A stretch of DNA of 64,000 nucleotides from an uncultured delta proteobacterium (GCA_963816145.1 CAWFJP010000005.1:347109-411108), one strand, 5' to 3'. Numbered from the stretch's first letter, positions 1,517 to 10,662 are shown. Notes: generated from the sequence alone by a model not told the origin. Made by a program: numbers and translations.

Positions 1517-2353
1517 TTAGAAGAAAGCCAACGTCCGCATCTCGATGCTTTCGCGCGGCGGCACATTGGGCGGGGCCGTCGGGTCGTCAAAGGCGCAGTG
1601 GGCGGTCCAGCGGGCCCGGCCGTCTTTGAGCGAGTCGTAGCACTTGAACACCATGGCCTCGTTGCGCTGCATGTTGGGAAAGTAGCACCAGCGATGCGCC
1701 GGGTTATGGGTCATGTGGTAGACCTCGCCGCGCCGGTTCGGGTAAATGCGCGCGCTCGGGATCAGTTCACTGGTTCCAATGGACTGGGCGTCGGCGATGG
1801 CGAGATGGTCGTTTTGCACCGGCTGGTTGATCGGCCGCCAGGTTTGCACCACGGCGAAGCGCCGGCTGATGAGTTCTTCGGCTTCATCTGGCAGCAACTC
1901 GCGCACCCGCTGCGGTCCCGACCACTCCGTGTAGTCATTGTGCGCGTTGCGTACCGGGCTGCTTACCTGATTGGCCTCGCGGATGGCGCTGTCCGCGGCG
2001 CGCAACGTGTGATCGAACACCAGCACCCGTTTGGCGCCGGAGATTTGCTTTACCAGTTCCTCGGTTTCGTTGTAATAGATCGAGCGCACTTCATCTTCGT
2101 CGTAGAAATTTTTCACCTGGGTGTCGTGACGGACGAGGACGAACCCCTCGCGCTCCAGTGACAGCCGATCGGCGATGTCCCGGCCATTGTAGATCGGCAT
2201 CTTGAACTCGGCGTACTTGCCCTTGCGCTTTTGGTCCGCTACCTCTTGCCGGACCCCGCCATAGCTCTCGGGTGTTTCGCTAGTATCGACGAGATAGTTC
2301 AAAATCGCTTCAAATGCCGGCGCGGGCTCGTTGATTTGTTCGGCTCGTGACAT
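1517..2353 (-). CDS. CmcJ/NvfI/AsaB-family oxidoreductase
   Basis: LEREGF, VFDHTLR, AHNDYT, WRPI, HRWCYFPNM, AHCAFDDP, RESIEMR motifs; start set at ATG 2353. Confidence 0.85.
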   Translation of the reverse strand: MSRAEQINEPAPAFEAILNYLVDTSETPESYGGVRQEVADQKRKGKYAEFKMPIYNGRDIADRLSLEREGFVLVRHDTQVKNFYDEDEVRSIYYNETEELVKQISGAKRVLVFDHTLRAADSAIREANQVSSPVRNAHNDYTEWSGPQRVRELLPDEAEELISRRFAVVQTWRPINQPVQNDHLAIADAQSIGTSELIPSARIYPNRRGEVYHMTHNPAHRWCYFPNMQRNEAMVFKCYDSLKDGRARWTAHCAFDDPTAPPNVPPRESIEMRTLAFF

Positions 2354-2385
2354 AAGCGGTTTCCTTTGGGGGTAATCGAACAATG

Positions 2386-2472
2386 GTTCACCACGAAGGC
2401 ACGAAGGACACGAAGGTTTCGAACGATCTAACTTCCGAACTTCGCGCTTTTCGTGTCCTTCGTGGTGAACAT
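2386..2472. repeat. Intergenic palindromic element built of CACGAAG units
   Basis: GTTCACCACGAAGGCACGAAGGACACGAAG...TTCGTGTCCTTCGTGGTGAAC; a half copy occurs at 11944-11977. Confidence 0.8.
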
Positions 2473-2500
2473 GTCTTGGTCTTCGTGGCGCTGGCTATTC

Positions 2501-3139
2501 CTACTTCGGCATCATCTCGCAGGGTGTCTGCCTAGGGCCGAGGCTTTCGTAGTAGTCGTTGGTCTCCGGATTGTACCGGCCCTGGTTGAAGTCGCCGCCT
2601 TTTTGACTACGGATGATCACCGCCACGGTGCGTTCGCCGACGGTGAGCTCGGTGTGGATTTCATATGGCTTTACCAGATCGATGTCGCCCGGCCCGCAGA
2701 GCACGTTGCTCGATTCCTTGATCTGGGCAAAGTTGGGCTTGGAGCGGTCGTCGAGCCGGTCGTAGCGCACAACTTTTTCTCGGCCATCAATGACGCCATA
2801 AAGCGTGTAGATATGCGCGTGATCGTGAATCCGCGCCGGCGCGCCCTGGCGCGCTTGGCCTTTGGTCAGGCCGTTGATGGCGAAGCCGTAGTCGGGGTCC
2901 TCGTAGAAAAGCAGGTTCTCGGCGCGGCCGTTGGCGGGCACGCAATCGGGCCAGGTCTTCGAGGCGGCGACCATATCGGGATCGGCCAAGAGTTCGGCTA
3001 AGATCGGCCGCAGGCCATTCCAGCGTTTGTCGAGATCGGCTTCCTTGGCGAACAGCTCGCGGGTCTTTCGGATGAAACGATCTTTAGCATTTTCGCTGCT
3101 CGTTTGTCTCGTCGTGGTGGTTGCAGTTTGGGTTTCCAT
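2501..3139 (-). CDS. Cupin, cysteine dioxygenase-like protein
   Basis: IHDHAH and EIHTE metal-binding His motifs; GGAGGA RBS before ATG 3139. Confidence 0.7.
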   Translation of the reverse strand: METQTATTTTRQTSSENAKDRFIRKTRELFAKEADLDKRWNGLRPILAELLADPDMVAASKTWPDCVPANGRAENLLFYEDPDYGFAINGLTKGQARQGAPARIHDHAHIYTLYGVIDGREKVVRYDRLDDRSKPNFAQIKESSNVLCGPGDIDLVKPYEIHTELTVGERTVAVIIRSQKGGDFNQGRYNPETNDYYESLGPRQTPCEMMPK

Positions 3140-3152
3140 GTTTCCTCCTGGT

Positions 3153-4325
3153 CTAGGGTTGGAGTTGTGGTTGCGGGTTTGAGGTTGAGCTGCTGCGCGA
3201 TTCATATTCCCCCGCACCGTAGAAGCGCGCGCAGTTGTCCCAAAGGATCTTGCGCTTGTCGTCGTCGGAAAGTTTCAACTCAAGAAAGCTCTTGACGGCG
3301 TTGGGATACTTCGAGTCACCATGCGGATAGTCGGTGGAGAATACCAACTGATCGCAACCGAACTCTTCGATCGTGTAGCGTGCCGGCGCTTCATCGGGCT
3401 CGATGGAGATCCAGCATTGGCGTTTGAAATACTCGCTGGGCGGCATCTTCAAATCCGACATGAAGACATCGCCTTCACGCTCGTAGCCTTCGTCCAGCCG
3501 CCATAACAGCCAGGGCAGCCAGGAACAGTTGGCTTCAAGAAAGGCGACGCGCATCTTGGGATGACGTTCCAAAATACCTCCGCCCAAGAAAGCGCCCATG
3601 CCCATCATCTGCTCGAACGGTTGGGCATAAACGCGGCGCAGACCGAAGTTGGGTTCGAAATGTTCCGCCGCCTGGCGCGAGCGCGATGCCGAAGCTTCGT
3701 GGAAGCCCAACGGCAAATTCAATTCTTCGAGCAATTCCCAGAGCGGCTCGTAGTGCGGGTCATACCAGTTCTTGCCGTTGATGATGTTGGAGCGCAGGAA
3801 CACCGAGCGAAAACCATACTCTTCTTTGACCCGGCGGGTTTCGCGCAAAGCATCGTCGAGATCGTAGACCGAGATCATGCCGGCGCCGAGGAGCCGCTCG
3901 GGATCGGCGGAGCAAAAGTCATGCAGCCAATCGTTGTAGGCGCGCGCCATGGCGTCAGCGAAGCGCGGATCTTGGTCGGGGAAGGTGAGTATGCCCAGTC
4001 CGCGAGTCGGGAACAGCACCGCGGTGTCGATGCCTTCGGTGTCCATCGCTTCCAACTGCACGTGACCGGTCCAGCCGCGCTCGGCGTGGCTGCGATAGAT
4101 CTCCTGATTCTTATTGAAGTTGCTGCCGCGGTGCGGTGTGCCACCGGTGCGCCGGGTGTCTTTGGGCACTTTAGGAAAGATCGTGCCGAGATCGCGGACG
4201 TTGTCCGAGGTCCGGCCGCGCGGCGCCTGATCGCGAAATTTGGGATCAATATAGCGCTCCCAAAGATCGGGCGGCTCCATGATATGCATGTCGCTGTCGA
4301 AAACTTTGAATCCATTTTTCGCCAT
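3153..4325 (-). CDS. Amidohydrolase family 2 protein
   Basis: DSDMHIMEP, AYNDWL, GFHE, FLEANCSWLP, FSTDYPH, ILWDNCARFY. Confidence 0.9.
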   Translation of the reverse strand: MAKNGFKVFDSDMHIMEPPDLWERYIDPKFRDQAPRGRTSDNVRDLGTIFPKVPKDTRRTGGTPHRGSNFNKNQEIYRSHAERGWTGHVQLEAMDTEGIDTAVLFPTRGLGILTFPDQDPRFADAMARAYNDWLHDFCSADPERLLGAGMISVYDLDDALRETRRVKEEYGFRSVFLRSNIINGKNWYDPHYEPLWELLEELNLPLGFHEASASRSRQAAEHFEPNFGLRRVYAQPFEQMMGMGAFLGGGILERHPKMRVAFLEANCSWLPWLLWRLDEGYEREGDVFMSDLKMPPSEYFKRQCWISIEPDEAPARYTIEEFGCDQLVFSTDYPHGDSKYPNAVKSFLELKLSDDDKRKILWDNCARFYGAGEYESRSSSTSNPQPQLQP

Positions 4326-4518
4326 GGTTCCCCCTTTGATTTGCCGAGCGTAATGCCGAGTTAGGGGAGATGTCAAGCAATGTTTACTTTGAGTTGTCGG
4401 CGGGTTGGATCGCCGCTCCAGCGCGCAGATTCGGCGGAGATTTCTCGCTGCCCTCGAAATGACTATTGATGATGAATTGACCATGTCACAGTTTGCGGTC
4501 TTTCAAGTGTCGCTAACG

Positions 4519-5394
4519 TCACGGCATGTTAACGCCGGTAGGAGCGAAGTACTCTGAGCCCGTTGTGCGGGATGCACCCCATGGCAGTTCGAGCTGGTTG
4601 CCCTCAGGAAAGAGAACTTGCGCCGTCCCTTCAATGCGCTCGCCACGCACTTTGCCGCTGAATTCATGACGGGTTAGGCCGATGCCTTCCAACGTCATGA
4701 CGAGGTTGAACGAGATGTTCTCGCCGTTGAGCTTCATGTCGCTCAGCACTTCACGGTTGGCGCCGGCGCGGACGACGCCTTCGGCGCTTTGGAATTGCTG
4801 TTCCAACACCGCGGCGTAGGCGATGCGCTGGCCGGCGAGGTTAAACTCCCAGCTCCAGTTGCCGGCAATGCGCGCCGGCACGATCCAGAGGTAGCTGGTC
4901 GGGCTGCCGCTGTCAGTGGCGTCGGCGGGCCAGGTGCCGAGATCCCAGGTGCTGGTTAAGACGCGCGTGCCAGGGCGCGCGCGTTCGAGAATGATCGGTC
5001 TTAGCAGCCGCAAGAGTTCCGGAAATAGCCACATGGTGACTACCGTAGCCTCGCGGAGGTCGGCGTCGAAGGCGTTCTGATGAATAAACTTGACGCGGTC
5101 AGCGACGCCCTGGGCCATGGCGATGCCATTGGATTCGGCGATCAGCTTCGCGTCGATATCGACGCCCCAGCCGCGCACTTTCGCATTCATTTTCGCCGCG
5201 GTGAGGACAATGAGTCCATCGCCCGAGCCGAGGTCCGCCACCACGTCGTCGTCGCGCAGGTTGGCGAGCTTGAGCATGCGCTCGGCACTTTCGGGCGTGC
5301 TCGCTTGGAAGAACGAAAAGCGCTCTTGGGCCGGCGCGCCGGCGGCGGCACAAAGCATGATGCCGAAAATCAGTTTGCGGGTTAATTCAATCAT
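4519..5394 (-). CDS. Class I SAM-dependent methyltransferase with signal-peptide-like N-terminus and beta-rich C-terminal domain
   Basis: DLGSGDG, GVDID, ADLREATVVTMWL motifs. Confidence 0.8.
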   Translation of the reverse strand: MIELTRKLIFGIMLCAAAGAPAQERFSFFQASTPESAERMLKLANLRDDDVVADLGSGDGLIVLTAAKMNAKVRGWGVDIDAKLIAESNGIAMAQGVADRVKFIHQNAFDADLREATVVTMWLFPELLRLLRPIILERARPGTRVLTSTWDLGTWPADATDSGSPTSYLWIVPARIAGNWSWEFNLAGQRIAYAAVLEQQFQSAEGVVRAGANREVLSDMKLNGENISFNLVMTLEGIGLTRHEFSGKVRGERIEGTAQVLFPEGNQLELPWGASRTTGSEYFAPTGVNMP

Positions 5395-5415
5395 GCATTC
5401 TCCGTTGCTATTCTC

Positions 5416-5476
5416 GTACGGGCGACCCCCCCGTGGTCACCATCTCCGGCGGACAGGCACGGGGGCCGGCCCCTCC
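5416..5476. repeat. Degenerate REP-like pair
   Basis: GTACGGGCGACCCCCCCGTGGTCACC...GGACAGGCACGGGGGCCGGCCCCTCC, resembling GTAG-type REP doublets. Confidence 0.5.
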
Positions 5477-5595
5477 GCGGAATAGTTATTGAATTTACAA
5501 ACAAGCACGCCCTTTCTCTGCGGTCAATTGACAAGCGCTCTTTGCCCAATTACATCTCGTACAGTCGAGGGATATCTAACGGAATGCCGGGAGCT

Positions 5596-6582
5596 ATGAG
5601 CATGACTGTTCGAACATTGGTCGGTATCGCCATTCTGGTTTTGCTCAGTTCGGTCGACCTGAGCGCGCAAAGCCGCAAGGTGCGGGTGGCGATGCCGGGC
5701 TACACCATCGCCGGGATTTCATTTCTTACCGCGAAGGTCAACGGCTACTACGCCGCCGAGGGCTTGGATGTGGAGCTGATCGCCATGCGCGCGCCGACGG
5801 CGAATCTCGCCGTGCTGAGCAGCAGCGTGGAGTTCTCCACGGTGCCTTTGGCTGGATTGAATACGGCGCTGCGCGGCGGCGCATTGAAGATCGTCATGGT
5901 CCACTTCGACAAGCCGCAGCATGTGTTGTTTGTCAAGAATGACCTGCAAAATCTAAAACTCTTGCGCGGCAAAAAAGTCGCCGTGTCCGGGCCGGGAGTG
6001 ATCGACGACTTGCTGTTGCGTGAAGTGCTGGGAAATAACGGCATCGATGCCAACAAAGAGCTGGCTATTCTCAGCATGGGTTCGGCGGATACCCGGGTGA
6101 CCAGCTTGATCAGTGGCGCGGTGGACGGAGCGATGATCATCGCTCCGCATACTTTTACCGCCAAGGACGCGGGCTTTCGCGAATTGGTGGTGTTTCGCGA
6201 CCAGGGTTTGCTCTTGCCGAGCGGCGGTATCGCGGCACGGGACGAAACACTGAAAAACGATCCGGGTTTGGTGGAGCGCTTCACGCGCGCGTCGATGATG
6301 GGGTTCATCCACTCGCGCGATAACCGCGCCGGCGCGATCCGGGTTCTTAGCAAGACGTTAAGGATCGACGAGACGATCGCCGCGAAAGTATACGATTCGT
6401 CGCGACCGACGATGACGGCCGACGGCACGCTCAGTGACGATGCACAAAAGAAAATGGCTGCTTTTGTCGCTAAGTCTGCCGGCCTTAAAGAAATCATAGC
6501 GGCGGACAAGGCCTTCGATTTCTCGTTTGTACGCAAGGCTAACGCTGCGTTGCACACCAAAGGCTGGCAGCCGCTGCCGTGA
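5596..6582 (+). CDS. ABC substrate-binding protein, NMT1/THI5/SsuA-like
   Basis: Signal peptide; GYYAAEGLDVEL, LRGKKVAV, FDFSFV motifs; GGGAG RBS. Confidence 0.85.
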   Translation: MSMTVRTLVGIAILVLLSSVDLSAQSRKVRVAMPGYTIAGISFLTAKVNGYYAAEGLDVELIAMRAPTANLAVLSSSVEFSTVPLAGLNTALRGGALKIVMVHFDKPQHVLFVKNDLQNLKLLRGKKVAVSGPGVIDDLLLREVLGNNGIDANKELAILSMGSADTRVTSLISGAVDGAMIIAPHTFTAKDAGFRELVVFRDQGLLLPSGGIAARDETLKNDPGLVERFTRASMMGFIHSRDNRAGAIRVLSKTLRIDETIAAKVYDSSRPTMTADGTLSDDAQKKMAAFVAKSAGLKEIIAADKAFDFSFVRKANAALHTKGWQPLP

Positions 6583-6583
6583 A

Positions 6584-6613
6584 TTGACAACAGCGCTCCA
6601 GCGGCACTAAGGT
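6584..6613 (+). promoter_or_regulatory. Sigma70-like promoter for the reductase gene pair
   Basis: TTGACA-18 nt-TAAGGT just upstream of ATG 6632. Confidence 0.5.
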
Positions 6614-6631
6614 CTTCTGTGAAAGAGCATT

Positions 6632-7906
6632 ATGCAACTGACACTGGCCTATCACCCGGTTAGCTCGATTCGCTTCGGCGCTAAATTGAATTTGGACGGC
6701 ACGGTGCTGACGGTTAGCCAAGACGAATTGCGCGCCATTGTTCTCGAAGACTCGCTGATCGAAGCGGTGGACTTCGCCCTCGCCGCGCCCAACGACAGCC
6801 TGCGCGCCGGGCCGGTGTTCGATATCGTCGAGCCGCGCGCCAAGGCGGCGGTCGGCAGCCCGGACTGGCCGGGGATTCTCGGTGCGCCGCAGACCGCCGG
6901 CAGCGGCACTACGCATGTGCTGTCCGGTGCGGCAGTGACCATGCTGCGTGAGGACTCTTCCGGTGATTCGCGCGGCGCCACTGGTTACGTCCTCGAAATG
7001 AGCGGCGCGCCGGCGGCGGGCTCGCATTACGGCACGCTGCGGCATTTGATCGTCGTACCGCGTACTCGGCCGAATATTCCGGCGGCCGCGCGTCAGCGCG
7101 CTTACCGTTTAGCGCAATTGAAAATGGCTGTGCGACTGGCACAGGCGGCTTTTTCTGTCGTACCGGCGCGATCCGAAGTCCTCGATAACGCGGATGCCGA
7201 GCCGCGCGCCGGCTTGCCGCGGCTGGCTTACATTGGTCAAATCTTTTCACGTCAGCGCAAACCGGAAGCCGATGAGCATATACTTTACGGCACTGACACC
7301 GACGGCATGCTGCCGACCCTCCTCCATCCCAACGAGTGGCTCGACGGCGCGTTGGTGCCGTCGTACCACGCGTCAATCGGTGGCGCAGAAACCTATTTTT
7401 ATCAAAATCATCCAGTGATTCTCGAACTCTACCGGCGCCATCGCGCGGGTGAAATAAATTTCATCGGCTCGGTGGCGACGATAGCCTCGGCCAATAATTT
7501 CGACCGCGAACGCAACACGCGCTTTGCGGCCAATCTTACTAAATGGGCACTGCGCGCTGATGCCGCAGTGCTGACCAAGTTCGGCGGCGGCGTGCCGCAC
7601 ACGGATTTGTCGGAGACCGCGCGCGTACTCGAAACCATGGGTGTCAAGACCGCCGTGCAGGTTACGGATCTCGCGCGCGACCACCGGATCGAGTCGGCGC
7701 TATTGTTCAACTTCCCCGAGGTCGACGCCATCGTCTGCATCGGCGGCAACGACACCCACTGGAAGCTGCCGCAGGTCGAGCGCGTGATCGCGGCCAGCAG
7801 CGGCCTGGCGGAGTTGCTCGCCGGCCCGTTGGAGATCGACTCGCTCAATGTGATCGGCGTCGCCAACCAGCAAGGGGCGTCGCGATTGAAGTCGGTGGTG
7901 TATTAA
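6632..7906 (+). CDS. Glycine/sarcosine/betaine reductase component B proprotein-like subunit (GrdE/GrdG/GrdI family)
   Basis: DIVEPRAK, GSGTTHVLSG, PTLLHPNEWLDGAL, TYFYQNHPVILELY motifs; adjacent to a selenoprotein B homolog. Confidence 0.85.
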   Translation: MQLTLAYHPVSSIRFGAKLNLDGTVLTVSQDELRAIVLEDSLIEAVDFALAAPNDSLRAGPVFDIVEPRAKAAVGSPDWPGILGAPQTAGSGTTHVLSGAAVTMLREDSSGDSRGATGYVLEMSGAPAAGSHYGTLRHLIVVPRTRPNIPAAARQRAYRLAQLKMAVRLAQAAFSVVPARSEVLDNADAEPRAGLPRLAYIGQIFSRQRKPEADEHILYGTDTDGMLPTLLHPNEWLDGALVPSYHASIGGAETYFYQNHPVILELYRRHRAGEINFIGSVATIASANNFDRERNTRFAANLTKWALRADAAVLTKFGGGVPHTDLSETARVLETMGVKTAVQVTDLARDHRIESALLFNFPEVDAIVCIGGNDTHWKLPQVERVIAASSGLAELLAGPLEIDSLNVIGVANQQGASRLKSVVY

Positions 7907-7917
7907 GAGGGCGTGAG

Positions 7918-7983
7918 GCCTGAGACGCGAGGCTTGAGTAAATCCGGAATCCGAACTCATGTCTCAAGCCTCGCGCCTCAGGC
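7918..7983. repeat. 21-bp inverted repeat (1 mismatch, 24-nt loop) between the two reductase genes
   Basis: GCCTGAGACGCGAGGCTTGAG / CTCAAGCCTCGCGCCTCAGGC. Confidence 0.85.
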
Positions 7984-8000
7984 GTACTTAGGAGTTTGTC

Positions 8001-9272
8001 ATGCGTGTCGTACATTACGTCAATCAATTTTTCGGTGGGCTCGGCGGTGAAGAACACGCAGGAAATGCGCTTGAAATTCGCGATGGTGCGGTGGGGCCGG
8101 GCAAGTTGCTGGAACAACTCTTTGGCAACGACTGCCAAGTGGTGATGACGTTGGTCTGCGGCGATAACTACGCTGTGGAGAATCTGGAGGCGTTGACGGC
8201 CGCTGTATTGGAAAAAATTCGCGCTGCCCAGGCCGATCTGTTTGTCGCCGGGCCATGCTTTCTAGCGGGGCGATACGGCCTGGCGGCGGGGGCGCTGTGC
8301 GCGGCCGCGCAGGCGACATTGAAAATTCCCGTCATCACCGCCATGGCGGCGGAGAATCCCGGCGCCGATCTCTACCGCGAGTTCATGTATATCGTCGACT
8401 CCGGTGACAATAGCGCTAAGATGCGCGAGGTGTTGACGCGAATGGCGGCCATGGCACAGAAGCTCATGCGTCATGAGATCATCGGCAGCCCCAAGGATGA
8501 AGGCTATCTCGTGCGCGGATTGATCCGCGATGAATTTGTCGAGCTATCCGCCGGCCAGCGCTTGGTCGATATGGTGCTCAAGAAAGTGCGCGGCGAGCCC
8601 TTCGAGAGCGAAATGAGTCCGACCACCTTCGCGCCGGTACCGAAGCCGCCGGCGATCGCCGATCTGACAAAAGCCAAGGTGATGCTGGTTACCGACGGCG
8701 GGCTGGTGCCGAAGGGCAATCCAGACAAGATCCAGGGCTCGGCGGCGACTCGCTGGGGCGTGTACAGTGTCAAAGGTTGCCAAGATTTGGATGGCGCCGA
8801 CTACGAGATCTCCCACGGCGGCTATGATCCGCAGTTCGTGCGCCAGGATCCGGATCGGCTGGTGCCGCTGGATGTCATGCGCGAACTGGAACGGGAGGGC
8901 GTCATCGGCGAGTTGCACGAAGAGTTTATTTCCACTTCGGGTCTGTCTAATCCATTGTCGAACACCCGGCGCATGGGACGGGAGATGGCAGCCAAGGCGA
9001 AGCAGCTGGGCATCGACGCGATCATTCTGACTTCAACGTGAGGCACCAGCACTCGCAGCGGCGCTGCGATCACTACGGAATTGGAAAAGGCCGGTATTCC
9101 CACGGTGCAGATTACCGCCGCGTTGCCCGTGGCGAAGATGGTCGGCGCCAATCGGTTGGTGCTCGGCAATGGTATCGTCCATGTGGTGGGCGATGCCAAG
9201 GTATCGAAAGAGGACGAAAAGAAGCTGCGGCGCCGCTTGGTGGAGCAGGCTCTCGCGGCGATGCAAAAGTAA
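8001..9272 (+). CDS. Glycine/sarcosine/betaine reductase selenoprotein B family protein (GrdB/F/H-like), 423 aa, Sec at TGA 9039-9041
   Basis: MRVVHYVNQFFGG, AGPCFLAGRYG, VTDGGLVPKGNPD, HGGYD, DPDRLVPLD; ILTST-TGA-GTSTRSGA continues in frame into ORF 9081-9272 (EKAGIPTVQIT, VGANR). Confidence 0.92.
9053..9069 (+). promoter_or_regulatory. Bacterial SECIS-like hairpin
   Basis: TCGCAGC-GGC-GCTGCGA beginning after an 11-nt spacer following the in-frame TGA; G-containing apical loop. Confidence 0.75.
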
Positions 9273-9522
9273 TAGCCGATGGAATCGCGTCCATAATTTT
9301 GCCCGTTATCGGCCATTGCGCAGGGGTTCTTCGCCGAGGCCCGTAAAGATTGTCCAGTTCCTTGACTTGCTTCGAAGGCTGCTTTGGCTATTGATCGAGT
9401 ATGGCATTATAATCAGCAACGAACCGAGTGAGCTTCGCCGGTGGAGGCAGGCCAAGTGGCGAATACATCAATTTCCCAACTCTATGCCAGGACAATACCA
9501 AATCGCCGATTAGAGATCGCGA

Positions 9523-10662
9523 ATGAAACGTAGATTGATTGGACCGACGGTCATCGCCACGACGCTTTGCCTAGTGCTGTTGCAGCACCGTTTTTTTGGC
9601 GACAAAGGTTGGAGTCTCCTCGGGGTTCTGGGAAAAGTCCTGTCCGTCGTGGGTGCGATCCTTACGCCGCCCGAATCGGTCAGCAGCTTTTTTTATACTA
9701 ATCTCGCGTTGCCGCTGGCGGTCGTTGTTACGGCGCTGGTTGTGCTTTGGATGATTCTAGCCGGCGCCCGGAAGACGATGCGTCAAGTGACCCCCGACGC
9801 GGAGGCGCCGATCTGGGAACTCCCCGTCACCAGCGATACCACTTCGGAGAGCGAACCGTTGGACGACGCGCCTGAATTGTCTTGGTCGCTGCCAGCCTAT
9901 CGCTTCAATTGTCTACGCAGCAAGCTGGTCCTGGGATTTCTCGCGATCAGCCTGTTCGTCGTGGTCGCGGCTGCGTCATTCACTTACAGCTATTTACATC
10001 GCGCGGTGGAGGGCGGCGCCAAGGCGCGCGCAGGCATCACCGCGATGGCGGTCAACGCCACGGCGGTTTGGCATGTCGATGGAAAGAGGTATCAGGAGCT
10101 GCGCGACGAATTGGTCAAGACGACGACCCGACCAGCGGTCGCCTACGCCTATGTCGAGGACAGTGATGGCGAGTTGATTGCTCACGCTCCGAAAGATCTG
10201 CCGAATCATTTGATTCGCCGGCCGTTGTTGGAGCCGCGCCTGATGACTGGCGAACAGTTGGTGGGTTATCGCAACGAGATCGTCTACGACTACGCCCAGC
10301 GCAGTGGCTTGAACAATCGATTCGTCGTCCATCTGGGAATCTGGCAGGACTCGGTGGTGGCCGAGACATGGTCAGTGTTGGGGCCGATCTTGCTTGCGGT
10401 CATTTTGTTGATACTCTGCGCCGCGGCGGTGTTTCTCGTTATGTTGCGGGACCTGCACCGGCCGCTGCTTGAGCTGGTCGAACAGTCGACGCGCATTAGC
10501 AAAGGCAATTTTTCCGTGGCCCTGGCAACCAAGCGGGACGATGAACTGGGAGATCTGGCTCGCTCGTTGGAACGCATGAGATCGAGTTTGCGCGCAGTGC
10601 TTTCCCGTATTGGCACGGAACCTACGGCGACTCCGTCGGAGCGGCAGAGGCGATCGTTTTAG
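9523..10662 (+). CDS. Membrane protein with sensor region and C-terminal HAMP domain, no output domain
   Basis: Several TM segments; RPLLEL...ISKGNF...DDELGDLARSLERMR HAMP, then stop. Confidence 0.7.
   Translation: MKRRLIGPTVIATTLCLVLLQHRFFGDKGWSLLGVLGKVLSVVGAILTPPESVSSFFYTNLALPLAVVVTALVVLWMILAGARKTMRQVTPDAEAPIWELPVTSDTTSESEPLDDAPELSWSLPAYRFNCLRSKLVLGFLAISLFVVVAAASFTYSYLHRAVEGGAKARAGITAMAVNATAVWHVDGKRYQELRDELVKTTTRPAVAYAYVEDSDGELIAHAPKDLPNHLIRRPLLEPRLMTGEQLVGYRNEIVYDYAQRSGLNNRFVVHLGIWQDSVVAETWSVLGPILLAVILLILCAAAVFLVMLRDLHRPLLELVEQSTRISKGNFSVALATKRDDELGDLARSLERMRSSLRAVLSRIGTEPTATPSERQRRSF

Follow-up and report, generated by a model that had tools for sequence, protein, structure and literature searches.

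The fluoroacetate reductase FarEB of Cloacibacillus porcorum MFA1 is described as lacking the CxxC and two GrdE cysteines (PMC10838667). Its module lies apart from grdA and grdC, and the carboxymethyl group was proposed to be handed over to a shared GrdA and GrdC, so that several protein B modules share one protein A (PMC10838667). A figure legend in the same paper places grdABCDEX in the genome of the host, an anaerobe. A UxxCxxC motif around the selenocysteine (Sec) of glycine reductase protein B is named in PMC13188914. The canonical locus in our comparison (L096) has the order trxB-trxA-grdE-grdA-grdB-grdC-grdD.

Here we analyze a gene pair in a 64,000-nucleotide stretch of DNA from an uncultured delta proteobacterium (the window), which a preliminary description had presented as a stand-alone selenoenzyme module. 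The pair is an uncharacterised protein B variant that occurs commonly among uncultured bacteria of soil and ocean. The sequences indicate a conserved variant, not decay. We consider it likely that the genome has six paralogous protein B modules, the pair among them, which are specific for their substrates and share a distant single grdA and grdC, each module combining an uncleaved, non-pyruvoyl GrdE-like subunit with a Sec-containing GrdB-like subunit.

The gene pair and its active sites

The first gene (6632-7906, + strand) encodes a 424-amino-acid GrdE-like subunit of a protein B-type module, recognized by PF09338 (Gly_reductase, E 5e-72; 243 bits, cut-off 22.2). In an 82-row alignment it reads 'PSYHAS--IGGAE' against the canonical 'SGNCVS-ACDK', and the Asn-Cys self-cleavage site, the pyruvoyl precursor, is absent ('PSY-H' where canonical rows have 'SGN-C'). 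The cleavage cysteine is missing throughout the clade to which the pair belongs, its position being variously H, Y, N, S, R or W. The subunit is thus predicted to be uncleaved and non-pyruvoyl.

The second gene (8001-9272, + strand) encodes a GrdB-like selenoprotein of 423 amino acids when TGA is read as Sec, with the motif ILTST-U-GTSTRSGA and matches to PF07355 (GRDB, E 8e-131; 437 bits, cut-off 22). Both cysteines of UxxCxxC are replaced by serine (T-U-G-T-S-T-R-S). The sequence U-G-T-S-T-R-S recurs in 51 related loci and two of the genome's own paralogs, and U-G-T-C-T-R-C is found in 20 other rows, mostly from Firmicutes. Both active-site changes, already noted in the preliminary description, are real and are conserved in the clade.

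The in-frame TGA (9039-9041, + strand) lies at the same aligned site in relatives and paralogs, being present in 79/79 related loci and 6/6 of the genome's own GrdB paralogs, and the reading frame past it is kept in the 79 related loci. A SECIS-like hairpin with a 6-bp stem and a GGC loop (9054-9068, + strand) starts 12 nt after the TGA. Five of its six stem pairs are invariant across 21 clade sequences and the sixth changes only from C-G to U-G, in two of the 21, while the codons around the hairpin vary at third positions. Because there is no compensatory change, the hairpin is supported by suppressed synonymous variation and not by covariation. The genome encodes selA, selB and selD (each above its cut-off) and a tRNA-Sec with anticodon tca. 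We conclude that the TGA is predicted to encode Sec and that the machinery for its insertion is present.

A pseudogene pair or an assembly artefact, with translation ending at the TGA and degeneration behind the altered active sites, is extremely improbable. Single-base indels do occur elsewhere in this assembly (three in grdC, and possibly others at the C terminus of a GrdB on contig C8 and in the split GrdE on contig C27). However, both genes align over their full length with relatives (88.7% identity over 424 amino acids for the GrdE-like and 87% over 420 alignment columns for the GrdB-like protein), and the 51 clade loci in which the motif was read share the motif, the TGA and the frame beyond it. 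Moreover, 19 metagenome runs from soil or wetland contain the stretch, with 0.57-0.73 of its words present.

Placement among protein B families

The pair falls within the TIGR01918/PF07355 superfamily with a PF09338 partner, the GrdB-like protein scoring 480 bits with the TIGR01918 subfamily model (cut-off 65.45), and lies below every NCBIfam equivalog cut-off. The GrdB-like protein reaches 443.2 bits with the GrdB equivalog TIGR01917 (cut-off 602.2; passed by reference rows L090, L103, L105, L107, L096 and L088), 483.8 bits with the GrdF model NF040794 (cut-off 800), 433.7 bits with the GrdH model NF040795 (cut-off 775) and 87.7 bits with the D-proline reductase PrdB model TIGR04483 (cut-off 300). 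The GrdE-like protein scores 175.2 bits with the GrdG model NF040793 (cut-off 780) and 137.3 bits with the FarE equivalog NF053623 (cut-off 675). The GrdB sequence motif given in the methods of PMC9751293 matched five Firmicutes-type rows, none of the six own paralogs and no clade row; the GrdF motif from the same methods matched only L078, L082, L084 and L093, and not the window protein.

Phylogenetic analysis, which the preliminary description had proposed as a check, placed the proteins outside the clades of characterised glycine, sarcosine and betaine reductases. The 51 loci, the two own paralogs and one row with an S..C motif form a 54-row group (SH-aLRT 99), whose hosts include Candidatus Binatia and Dehalococcoidia/SAR202, among others.

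The pair might alternatively be a divergent betaine reductase (a GrdH/GrdI orthologue) that converts glycine betaine to trimethylamine and an acetyl unit. Such an assignment would fall under the shared-GrdA reading, as a special case in which the substrate is named. Betaine reductase (NF040795) has Sec at the same position and a substrate-specific protein B sharing A and C, and close homologs of the window genes bear this name in some JGI records (automatic names). The cleavage cysteine is absent from the window's partner subunit exactly as from the GrdI subunits paired with the GrdH equivalogs L108 and L109, which read 'SGS-F-MP' where the window has 'PSY-H-AS'; lacking this cysteine, the betaine-type partner subunit would carry no pyruvoyl group. 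In contrast, the window protein's 434 of the 775 bits for GrdH fall below the 509-587 bits that glycine-type and sarcosine-type rows attain with the same model. GrdH equivalogs also keep UxxCxxC (as U-G-T-C-T-R-C) and group in the tree with GrdB and GrdF (15 rows, SH-aLRT 91), apart from the window's clade, and the scanned neighbours included no BCCT/OpuD-type transporter. Orthology to betaine reductase is therefore unlikely.

Partner genes and genomic surroundings

As the preliminary description stated, only component B homologs occur at the locus, grdA, grdC, grdD, trxA and trxB all being absent from the window. Its suggestion that the partners could lie elsewhere in the genome was borne out for grdA and grdC. 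The sole grdA (contig C2:212428-212859; NF040748 184.5 bits, cut-off 130) contains a TGA in the motif C-F-V-U (CxxU) and lies directly downstream of the only grdC, giving one grdA for six GrdB paralogs of the window's type. The assembly splits grdC into four pieces through three single-base indels (frameshifts). Short-read contigs have none of them: two are missing in 4/4 runs and the third, L016 9160, in the 2/2 runs that cover it. For grdD the suggestion failed, as the best match in the genome reaches 20.3 bits against a cut-off of 350. GrdD was likewise above the cut-off in 0/41 relatives and 0/5 chromosome-level genomes, and was found by tblastn in 0/52 clade loci (positive control L096, 567 bits). 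Thioredoxin-system matches in the genome (contigs C30, C8, C18 and C11) are housekeeping copies away from the module. TrxA was found in 0/52 and TrxB in 2/52 clade loci, compared with 6/27 and 4/27 of the other loci.

The co-occurrence profile, also proposed beforehand, links GrdB (37 of the 41 genomes of the order) to GrdA (34) and GrdC (34), but not to GrdD. GrdA is single-copy and TGA-containing in each of its 34 carriers, and GrdC is intact and above its cut-off in 30/41 genomes. Genus g5 (G031, G033) lacks GrdB, and G027 lacks GrdB, GrdA and GrdC together. Physical linkage was also detected, grdC-grdA adjoining grdE-grdB in 17/52 clade loci carrying several phylum labels (in the fetched flanks; the same 17 for both genes). 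Where grdA is not adjacent in chromosome-level genomes, it is encoded elsewhere (5/5).

We identified a DUF255 thioredoxin-like protein near the module in 23/52 clade loci and in 0/27 other loci. This clade-specific neighbour shares the N-terminal domain and the conserved CxxC of DUF255/Thioredox_DsbH (PF03190), and its W-C-x-x-C is invariant in 8/8 aligned sequences. It is single-copy in 35/41 relatives, in at least 27 of which a GrdB is encoded no more than 10 kb away (a hand count, given as a lower bound). Two Binatia loci (L043, L046), and likewise G025 and G029, have the operon DUF255 / grdC-grdA-grdE-grdB. To our knowledge, no link has been described between the DUF255/PF03190 family and Grd-type reductases, and none of the papers covered by our literature search connects grd genes with Binatia or SAR202 in such a system.

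These observations bear on the stand-alone reading, in which the pair would carry out Se-dependent C-N/C-S cleavage or a redox reaction independently of GrdA, the lost cysteines reflecting a different catalytic cycle. Within the window's own subgroup (10 rows), neither grdA/grdC nor DUF255 adjoins any of the nine other loci, and trx genes are likewise missing near them; the link of the window's paralog to GrdA and GrdC is thus at the genome level only. The loss of both canonical catalytic features and the presence of six GrdB but one GrdA in the genome, which would allow independent modules, are also compatible with autonomy. In addition, both grdA and grdC were missing from 5/37 relatives that have GrdB (G001, G009, G020, G021 and G032; completeness 65, 93, 67, 95 and 95%), suggesting that some clade members may work without them. 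Nevertheless, the clade-wide adjacency to grdC-grdA, the presence of grdA in most relatives and in all five chromosome-level genomes where it is non-adjacent, and the absences in g5 and G027 argue for a connected system, and a shared A for several B modules is already described for Far (PMC10838667). We consider full independence from GrdA quite unlikely, and the stand-alone label is not retained. The preliminary description had named a complete grdACD/trx set elsewhere, together with placement within the characterised clades, as evidence against itself. About half of this was found, namely grdA and grdC elsewhere, with no grdD or adjacent Trx and with placement outside those clades.

Other local elements were less well conserved. 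Upstream lies a gene for an NMT1/SsuA-like periplasmic solute-binding protein (5596-6582, + strand, start ATG at 5596; PF09084 E 8e-18; TIGR01728 70.7 bits, below the cut-off of 163.5) with a signal-peptide-like N terminus. The gene is present as described, but it is one of about 253 paralogs (253 HSPs of at least 200 amino acids in the genome) and shares its position only with L035 among the nearest relatives, so that its link to the module is weak. The proposed sigma-70-like promoter (6584-6613, + strand) combines a perfect TTGACA -35 and an 18-nt spacer with a -10 hexamer, TAAGGT, that matches TATAAT at 3/6 positions. It was not called in a scan of 5300-9700, where one site was found against 1.6 expected from shuffles, and it is partly conserved in the closest relative, L035, in which the -10 region differs; a promoter beyond chance is not supported. 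Between the two genes, an inverted repeat of about 20 bp (7917-7983, + strand) does fold as claimed (-47.5 kcal/mol, z-score -4.6, 0/200 shuffles folding as well), but is not conserved among relatives, whose grdE-grdB spacers of 28-288 nt contain unrelated hairpins or none. The repeat is unique in the genome, and an Rfam search returned only sub-threshold miRNA-hairpin matches. The solute-binding protein, the promoter and the repeat are not conserved parts of the system.

Downstream, a 379-amino-acid HAMP-domain protein with no recognised output domain (9523-10662, + strand; PF00672 at residues 307-358) has homologs behind grdB in 6/6 subgroup loci (the window, L028, L035, L038, L041 and L042). 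The divergent genes upstream, which are kept in the subgroup, encode a CmcJ/NvfI-family oxidoreductase (1517-2383, - strand; NF041278 312 bits, cut-off 80), a protein without an assigned family (2501-3217, - strand) and an Amidohydro_2 protein (3153-4484, - strand; PF04909 E 5e-28). The protein clusters to which they belong (11, 15 and 12) are represented in four, three and four other loci, respectively. The oxygenase-type surroundings noted earlier are present, and genes of aerobic type are found in the host lineage, namely those for cytochrome c oxidase, Rieske oxygenases and luciferase-like oxygenases. The HAMP protein, the CmcJ-like oxygenase and the amidohydrolase do not point to a substrate. 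A separate observation, which we count against the shared-GrdA reading, is the loss of both cysteines beside Sec in an aerobic-type organism.

Proposed reaction and comparison with known reductases

Under the shared-GrdA reading, the selenolate of the GrdB-like subunit would attack the alpha-carbon of a substrate of the type X-CH2-COO-. As no pyruvoyl Schiff base would be available, the leaving group must be one that does not need it, and the substrate is probably a carboxymethyl compound of this kind; leaving groups such as a sulfonium, a halide or a quaternary ammonium (for example in glycine betaine) are candidates. The carboxymethyl group would then pass to the Sec of GrdA, a transfer that we infer from co-occurrence and adjacency, and would be reductively released on GrdC as an acetyl thioester. 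Because the lineage lacks GrdD, the known route to this end product is missing and acetyl phosphate is an improbable one, in place of which acetyl-CoA or acetate may be formed. The DUF255 protein probably provides the thiol chemistry of clostridial TrxA and of the two lost UxxCxxC cysteines.

Tentatively, and with less confidence than in the sharing of GrdA itself, these parts can be joined into a five-part system of DUF255, GrdC, GrdA, a non-pyruvoyl GrdE-like subunit and a U-x-x-S-x-x-S GrdB-like subunit, in which GrdD has no part. Such a system might operate in uncultured lineages of largely aerobic type, among them Binatia and SAR202/Dehalococcoidia, reductively cleaving non-amine or quaternary carboxymethyl compounds and yielding acetyl-CoA through the FabH-like GrdC alone rather than acetyl phosphate. 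The window's module could then have arisen by duplication within its lineage and act on a new substrate. If this were true, it would represent a non-Stickland, assimilatory use of glycine reductase chemistry.

The glycine and sarcosine reductase pairs (GrdB/GrdE and GrdF/GrdG) share with the window's pair the superfamily, the domain order, the homologous Sec site and a SECIS-like hairpin. The window's pair differs in lacking the pyruvoyl-precursor cysteine, UxxCxxC, equivalog-level scores and the published motifs (PMC9751293).

FarEB resembles the window's module as a GrdE-like and Sec-containing GrdB-like pair in which both the CxxC beside Sec and the processing cysteines are missing; by the text of PMC10838667, no other described system combines the two changes. 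Among the NCBIfam models, FarE also ranks second for the GrdE-like subunit. A Far-like reductase that removes halides or other leaving groups, and would detoxify or assimilate haloacetates or similar electrophilic carboxymethyl compounds, is nonetheless quite improbable. The FarE score of 137 bits against 675 indicates a different family, no FarA (oxalate/formate-antiporter-like) or FarC (radical-SAM) gene was found among the window genes scanned (31-20298), and the six paralogs per genome, together with the occurrence of the clade under several phylum labels, suggest commoner substrates. FarEB and the window's module differ further in that the window's genome has no detected GrdD and that DUF255 is the specific neighbour in its clade.

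A selenoprotein gene pair with altered active-site motifs

Three open reading frames in one direction make up the locus. The window corresponds to C5:347109-411108 of a 7.8-Mb assembly of 31 contigs (G000). On the plus strand, they encode an NMT1/SsuA-like solute-binding protein (SBP) with a signal-peptide-like N-terminus (ATG 5596-6582), a GrdE-like protein of 424 aa (6632-7906; PF09338, E 5e-72) and a GrdB-like protein of 423 aa (8001-9272; PF07355, E 8e-131; TIGR01918, 480 bits). The last of these genes reads through an in-frame TGA (9039-9041, plus strand) that occurs at the same site in 6/6 paralogs of the genome and at the equivalent site in 79/79 related loci where the site is readable. 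A sequence search of the PDB returned no match to the GrdE-like or GrdB-like protein. Database homologs of the latter form more than 120 clusters at ≥76% identity, and with four exceptions their length is 345-346 aa because the TGA was taken as a stop, a practical annotation problem.

Twelve nucleotides after the TGA begins a 6-bp hairpin, CGCAGC-GGC-GCUGCG, whose spacing and G-rich loop are presumably compatible with bacterial SECIS models. Across 21 clade sequences, synonymous sites in the stem are invariant save for one C-to-U change in two of them, and third codon positions around it are variable. As there is no compensatory change, the support for the hairpin is this suppression of synonymous variation. 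The genome encodes the selenocysteine machinery, with selA, selB and selD clustered at C30:562492-566803, selD carrying its own in-frame TGA, and a tRNA-Sec 10 kb downstream (C30:576761-576855).

PMC13188914 gives the motif of GrdB as UxxCxxC; that of the window protein is U-G-T-S-T-R-S. We aligned 78 fetched loci and six paralogs from the genome itself in an 84-row tree, leaving out L033 (internal TAA) and L036 (partial). U-x-x-S-x-x-S, the signature of the clade, is found in 53/84 rows (51 loci, the window and the paralog on contig C31), and U-x-x-C-x-x-C in 20/84, mostly Firmicutes. The GrdE-like partners are altered as well: in an 82-row alignment, the canonical ‘DGAIVSGN-C-VS-AC-DK’ is replaced in the clade by ‘DGALVPSY-H-AS--IGGAE’. 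The residue at the cysteine position varies among H, Y, N, S, R and W, and thus there is no conserved substitute nucleophile there. The cleavage cysteine is absent from every GrdE-like copy of the genome that was aligned, seven whole and the C-terminal half of a split gene on C27. Both active-site changes, which the preliminary description mentions, are real and conserved: U-G-T-S-T-R-S in clade rows and GrdE-like partners without the cleavage cysteine. Without that cysteine, the pyruvoyl group derived from it cannot form. This group is required for Schiff-base activation of glycine and sarcosine.

Probable partner genes elsewhere in the genome

The gene pair had been described as a stand-alone module without GrdA, GrdC, GrdD or thioredoxin. 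It is not stand-alone. G000 encodes six GrdB-like proteins, at least eight GrdE-like proteins and exactly one grdA (motif C-F-V-U; NF040748, 184.5 bits versus a cut-off of 130), located immediately 3' of grdC on contig C2. The partner search suggested in the preliminary description recovered grdA and grdC but no grdD over the cut-off. Among 41 genomes of the order (G000 and, unless stated, the unpublished G005 included; counts over relatives are not independent), GrdB is matched in 37/41 (36/40 without G005), GrdA, as one copy each with TGA, in 34/41 (33/40), and GrdC also in 34/41 (33/40). GrdD exceeds its cut-off in 0/41 (best 29 bits; 0/40 without G005). Neither grdA nor grdC was detected in five GrdB-positive genomes (G001, G009, G020, G021 and G032) of 65-95% completeness.

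Both genes also occur beside modules of the clade, with grdA in 17/52 clade loci and grdC in the same 17 (tblastn). In the Binatia loci L043 and L046 and the relatives G025 and G029, a DUF255 gene on the minus strand is followed by grdC-grdA-grdE-grdB, and in Dehalococcoidia and SAR202 loci grdA-grdC and grdE-grdB are divergently oriented. Both of the scanned grdC representatives exceed the GrdC equivalog cut-off (L074, 577 bits; L043, 621 bits), and in five chromosome-level genomes with non-adjacent grdA the gene is found elsewhere in 5/5. GrdD was detected in 0/52 clade loci versus 4/27 other loci, and over the cut-off in 0/5 chromosome-level genomes of clade holders; its model scored 567 bits on the canonical positive control L096 (trxB-trxA-grdE-grdA-grdB-grdC-grdD). 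TrxA was likewise found in 0/52 clade loci versus 6/27 others. The open frame around grdC far exceeds the gene in G038 (C1:1532124-1533548), G030 and G026 (1199, 633 and 568 aa), which may reflect fusion with an upstream gene in some relatives.

The assembled grdC of G000 carries three single-base frameshifts. Those at positions 8742 and 9625 of L016, the fetched grdC-grdA region, are missing from contigs of 4/4 soil/wetland runs, and that at 9160 from both covering runs (2 of 4). The gene is likewise fragmented in G004, G017 and G019, which are also few-contig assemblies from the genus, and intact in 30/41 genomes. We read the breaks as assembly indels and, given that all three are missing from short-read contigs, reject a grdC pseudogene for the population. 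Other genes of G000 are also interrupted: the C-terminus of the GrdB on C8 (L024:9477-10800) leaves the reading frame at a run of A, the GrdE on C27 (L022:8122-9427) is broken into pieces of 209 and 230 aa, and a molybdopterin dehydrogenase large subunit on C31 (L023:3917-6231) is split in two. These are likely single-base assembly indels as in grdC. Between grdC and grdA lies a short intergenic repeat (L016:9720-9947) with many joints and loose ends, whose summed contig depth is ~2000-4000 in three of four soil/wetland runs and ~30-80 in the fourth, with ~10 beside it. It resembles a small repeat element present in many copies in the lineage.

A further neighbor is a protein of ~500-600 aa with an N-terminal DUF255/Thioredox_DsbH domain, encoded in 23/52 clade loci versus 0/27 others, directly upstream, directly downstream or divergent. 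Its W-C-x-x-C motif is invariant in 8/8 aligned sequences. The protein is single copy in 35/41 relatives (34/40 without G005) and, among the matches listed and compared by hand, lies ≤10 kb from a GrdB in at least 27/35 (at least 26/34 without G005).

The window's subgroup and its neighborhood

In the 84-row tree, the window falls in a subgroup of 10 Binatia rows, and grdA, grdC or DUF255 is adjacent in none of the nine other loci. The DUF255 gene of G000 adjoins the paralog on C31 (66% identity to the window GrdB) and not the window's module. In our reading, the latter arose by lineage-specific duplication of the DUF255-linked module and probably has a different substrate. Downstream of grdB in 6/6 nearest subgroup loci, and duplicated in L028, is a gene for a HAMP-only protein of 379 aa with no output domain (9523-10662; HAMP C-terminal, residues 307-358). 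A CmcJ/NvfI-family oxidoreductase, an uncharacterized protein of 213-238 aa and an Amidohydro_2 protein are conserved upstream of the subgroup module. The conserved downstream genes (flavin reductase, PEP-mutase family and glyoxalase fold) were rejected, as they include no transporter and show no clear link.

The upstream SBP mentioned in the preliminary description is shared at its position only with L035, the window's closest relative, and is not conserved there in 6/7 nearest relatives. Its NMT1/SsuA-like family is hugely expanded (253 paralogous tblastn HSPs of ≥200 aa at E ≤1e-5 in the 7.8-Mb genome), and we do not regard it as a substrate clue. The window's first 15 kb contains at least four further genes for SBPs; among the genes scanned, neither an ABC permease nor an ABC ATPase was identified. 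Elsewhere in G000, a GrdE-like gene without a matching GrdB (C1:405505-406683) has SBP genes on both sides and a luciferase-like monooxygenase nearby, and at C29:96599-100208 a single GrdB is followed downstream by an SBP gene with a GrdE-like gene on either side.

The proposed promoter (6584-6613) has a perfect -35 and a 3/6 match at -10, and was not called by the promoter scan. The 21-bp hairpin that the preliminary description places in the spacer of the grd pair is confirmed as an inverted repeat (z -4.6) but is not a conserved part of the system. It is unique in the genome, unconserved in relatives and returns only sub-threshold miRNA look-alikes from Rfam, and was rejected as a regulatory element or repeat.

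Distribution, proposed chemistry and known systems

Titles of the fetched loci are Candidatus Binatia or older labels such as Deltaproteobacteria, Thermodesulfobacteriota and Syntrophobacterales MAGs, all the window's lineage. The clade also occurs under Dehalococcoidia, SAR202, Chloroflexota, Nitrospinota, Acidiferrales and one Verrucomicrobiia label. Nineteen soil or wetland metagenome runs contain 0.57-0.73 of the words of the stretch, and one soil metatranscriptome contains 0.07. The relatives have 2 to 10 GrdB matches per genome. Two gut Firmicutes genomes, G042 (locus L093) and G043 (L098), contain 9 and 7 GrdB-like matches, all of them with TGA, so that Binatia are not alone in having large families of protein-B paralogs. 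A literature search joining Binatia/Binatota or SAR202 with grd, glycine/betaine reductase or selenoprotein found no paper on the system. grdH was not detected in the sponge data of PMC9999580, and PMC10837836 was discarded as a grd source, as ‘grd’ occurs there only within an author's name in a reference.

Glycine-reductase chemistry belongs to the Stickland metabolism of strict anaerobes, and the hosts here are soil and ocean lineages carrying oxygenases and cytochrome oxidase. The set of conserved parts defines a variant with a changed active site, multiple copies per genome, no acetyl-phosphate-making subunit and its own thioredoxin-like partner. From these parts, we infer that the selenocysteine of the GrdB-like subunit would accept a carboxymethyl group and hand it on to GrdA, and that GrdC, FabH-like by NCBIfam side hits, would receive the acetyl unit. 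Given the lack of a pyruvoyl group, the leaving group of the substrate should need no Schiff base. Acetyl phosphate is unlikely as a product as there is no GrdD, and the end product may be acetyl-CoA or acetate. The CxxC domain of the DUF255 protein would probably serve as reductant or as resolving thiol. Should the module act on abundant osmolytes or on other compounds with a carboxymethyl group, the system would represent unrecognized selenium-dependent carbon turnover in Binatia and SAR202 and a reason for their selenium demand.

Placement outside the characterized glycine, sarcosine and betaine reductase clades, the outcome that the preliminary description had favored, is upheld by equivalog scores and two trees. 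The module proteins reach no NCBIfam equivalog cut-off: GrdF, 484 bits (cut-off 800); GrdB, 443 (602); GrdH, 434 (775); GrdG, 175 (780); FarE, 137 (675); and PrdB, 88 (300). Reference rows exceed those of GrdF (L078, L093), GrdB (L090, L103, L105, L107, L096, L088) and GrdH (L108, L109). In quick searches with SH-aLRT only, midpoint rooting and no PrdB outgroup, the 84-row tree unites the U..S..S rows and one S..C row in a 54-row group (SH-aLRT 99) separate from a 19-row group of glycine and sarcosine rows (98), and a 48-row tree places the two GrdH equivalogs with the GrdB/GrdF group (15 rows, 91) and the window's clade in a different group (28 rows, 96).

The GrdB and GrdF motifs from the methods of PMC9751293 match Firmicutes-type rows only and 0/6 of the genome's own paralogs; the clade may already be present in the complete GrdB tree of that study (Fig. 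S6). The GrdI partners of betaine reductase likewise lack the cleavage cysteine, but the present GrdB-like protein scores below the GrdH cut-off and does not group with the GrdH equivalogs. Among the systems described, FarEB (PMC10838667) alone is reported to combine the two active-site changes; the FarE model does not recognize the present module as a member.
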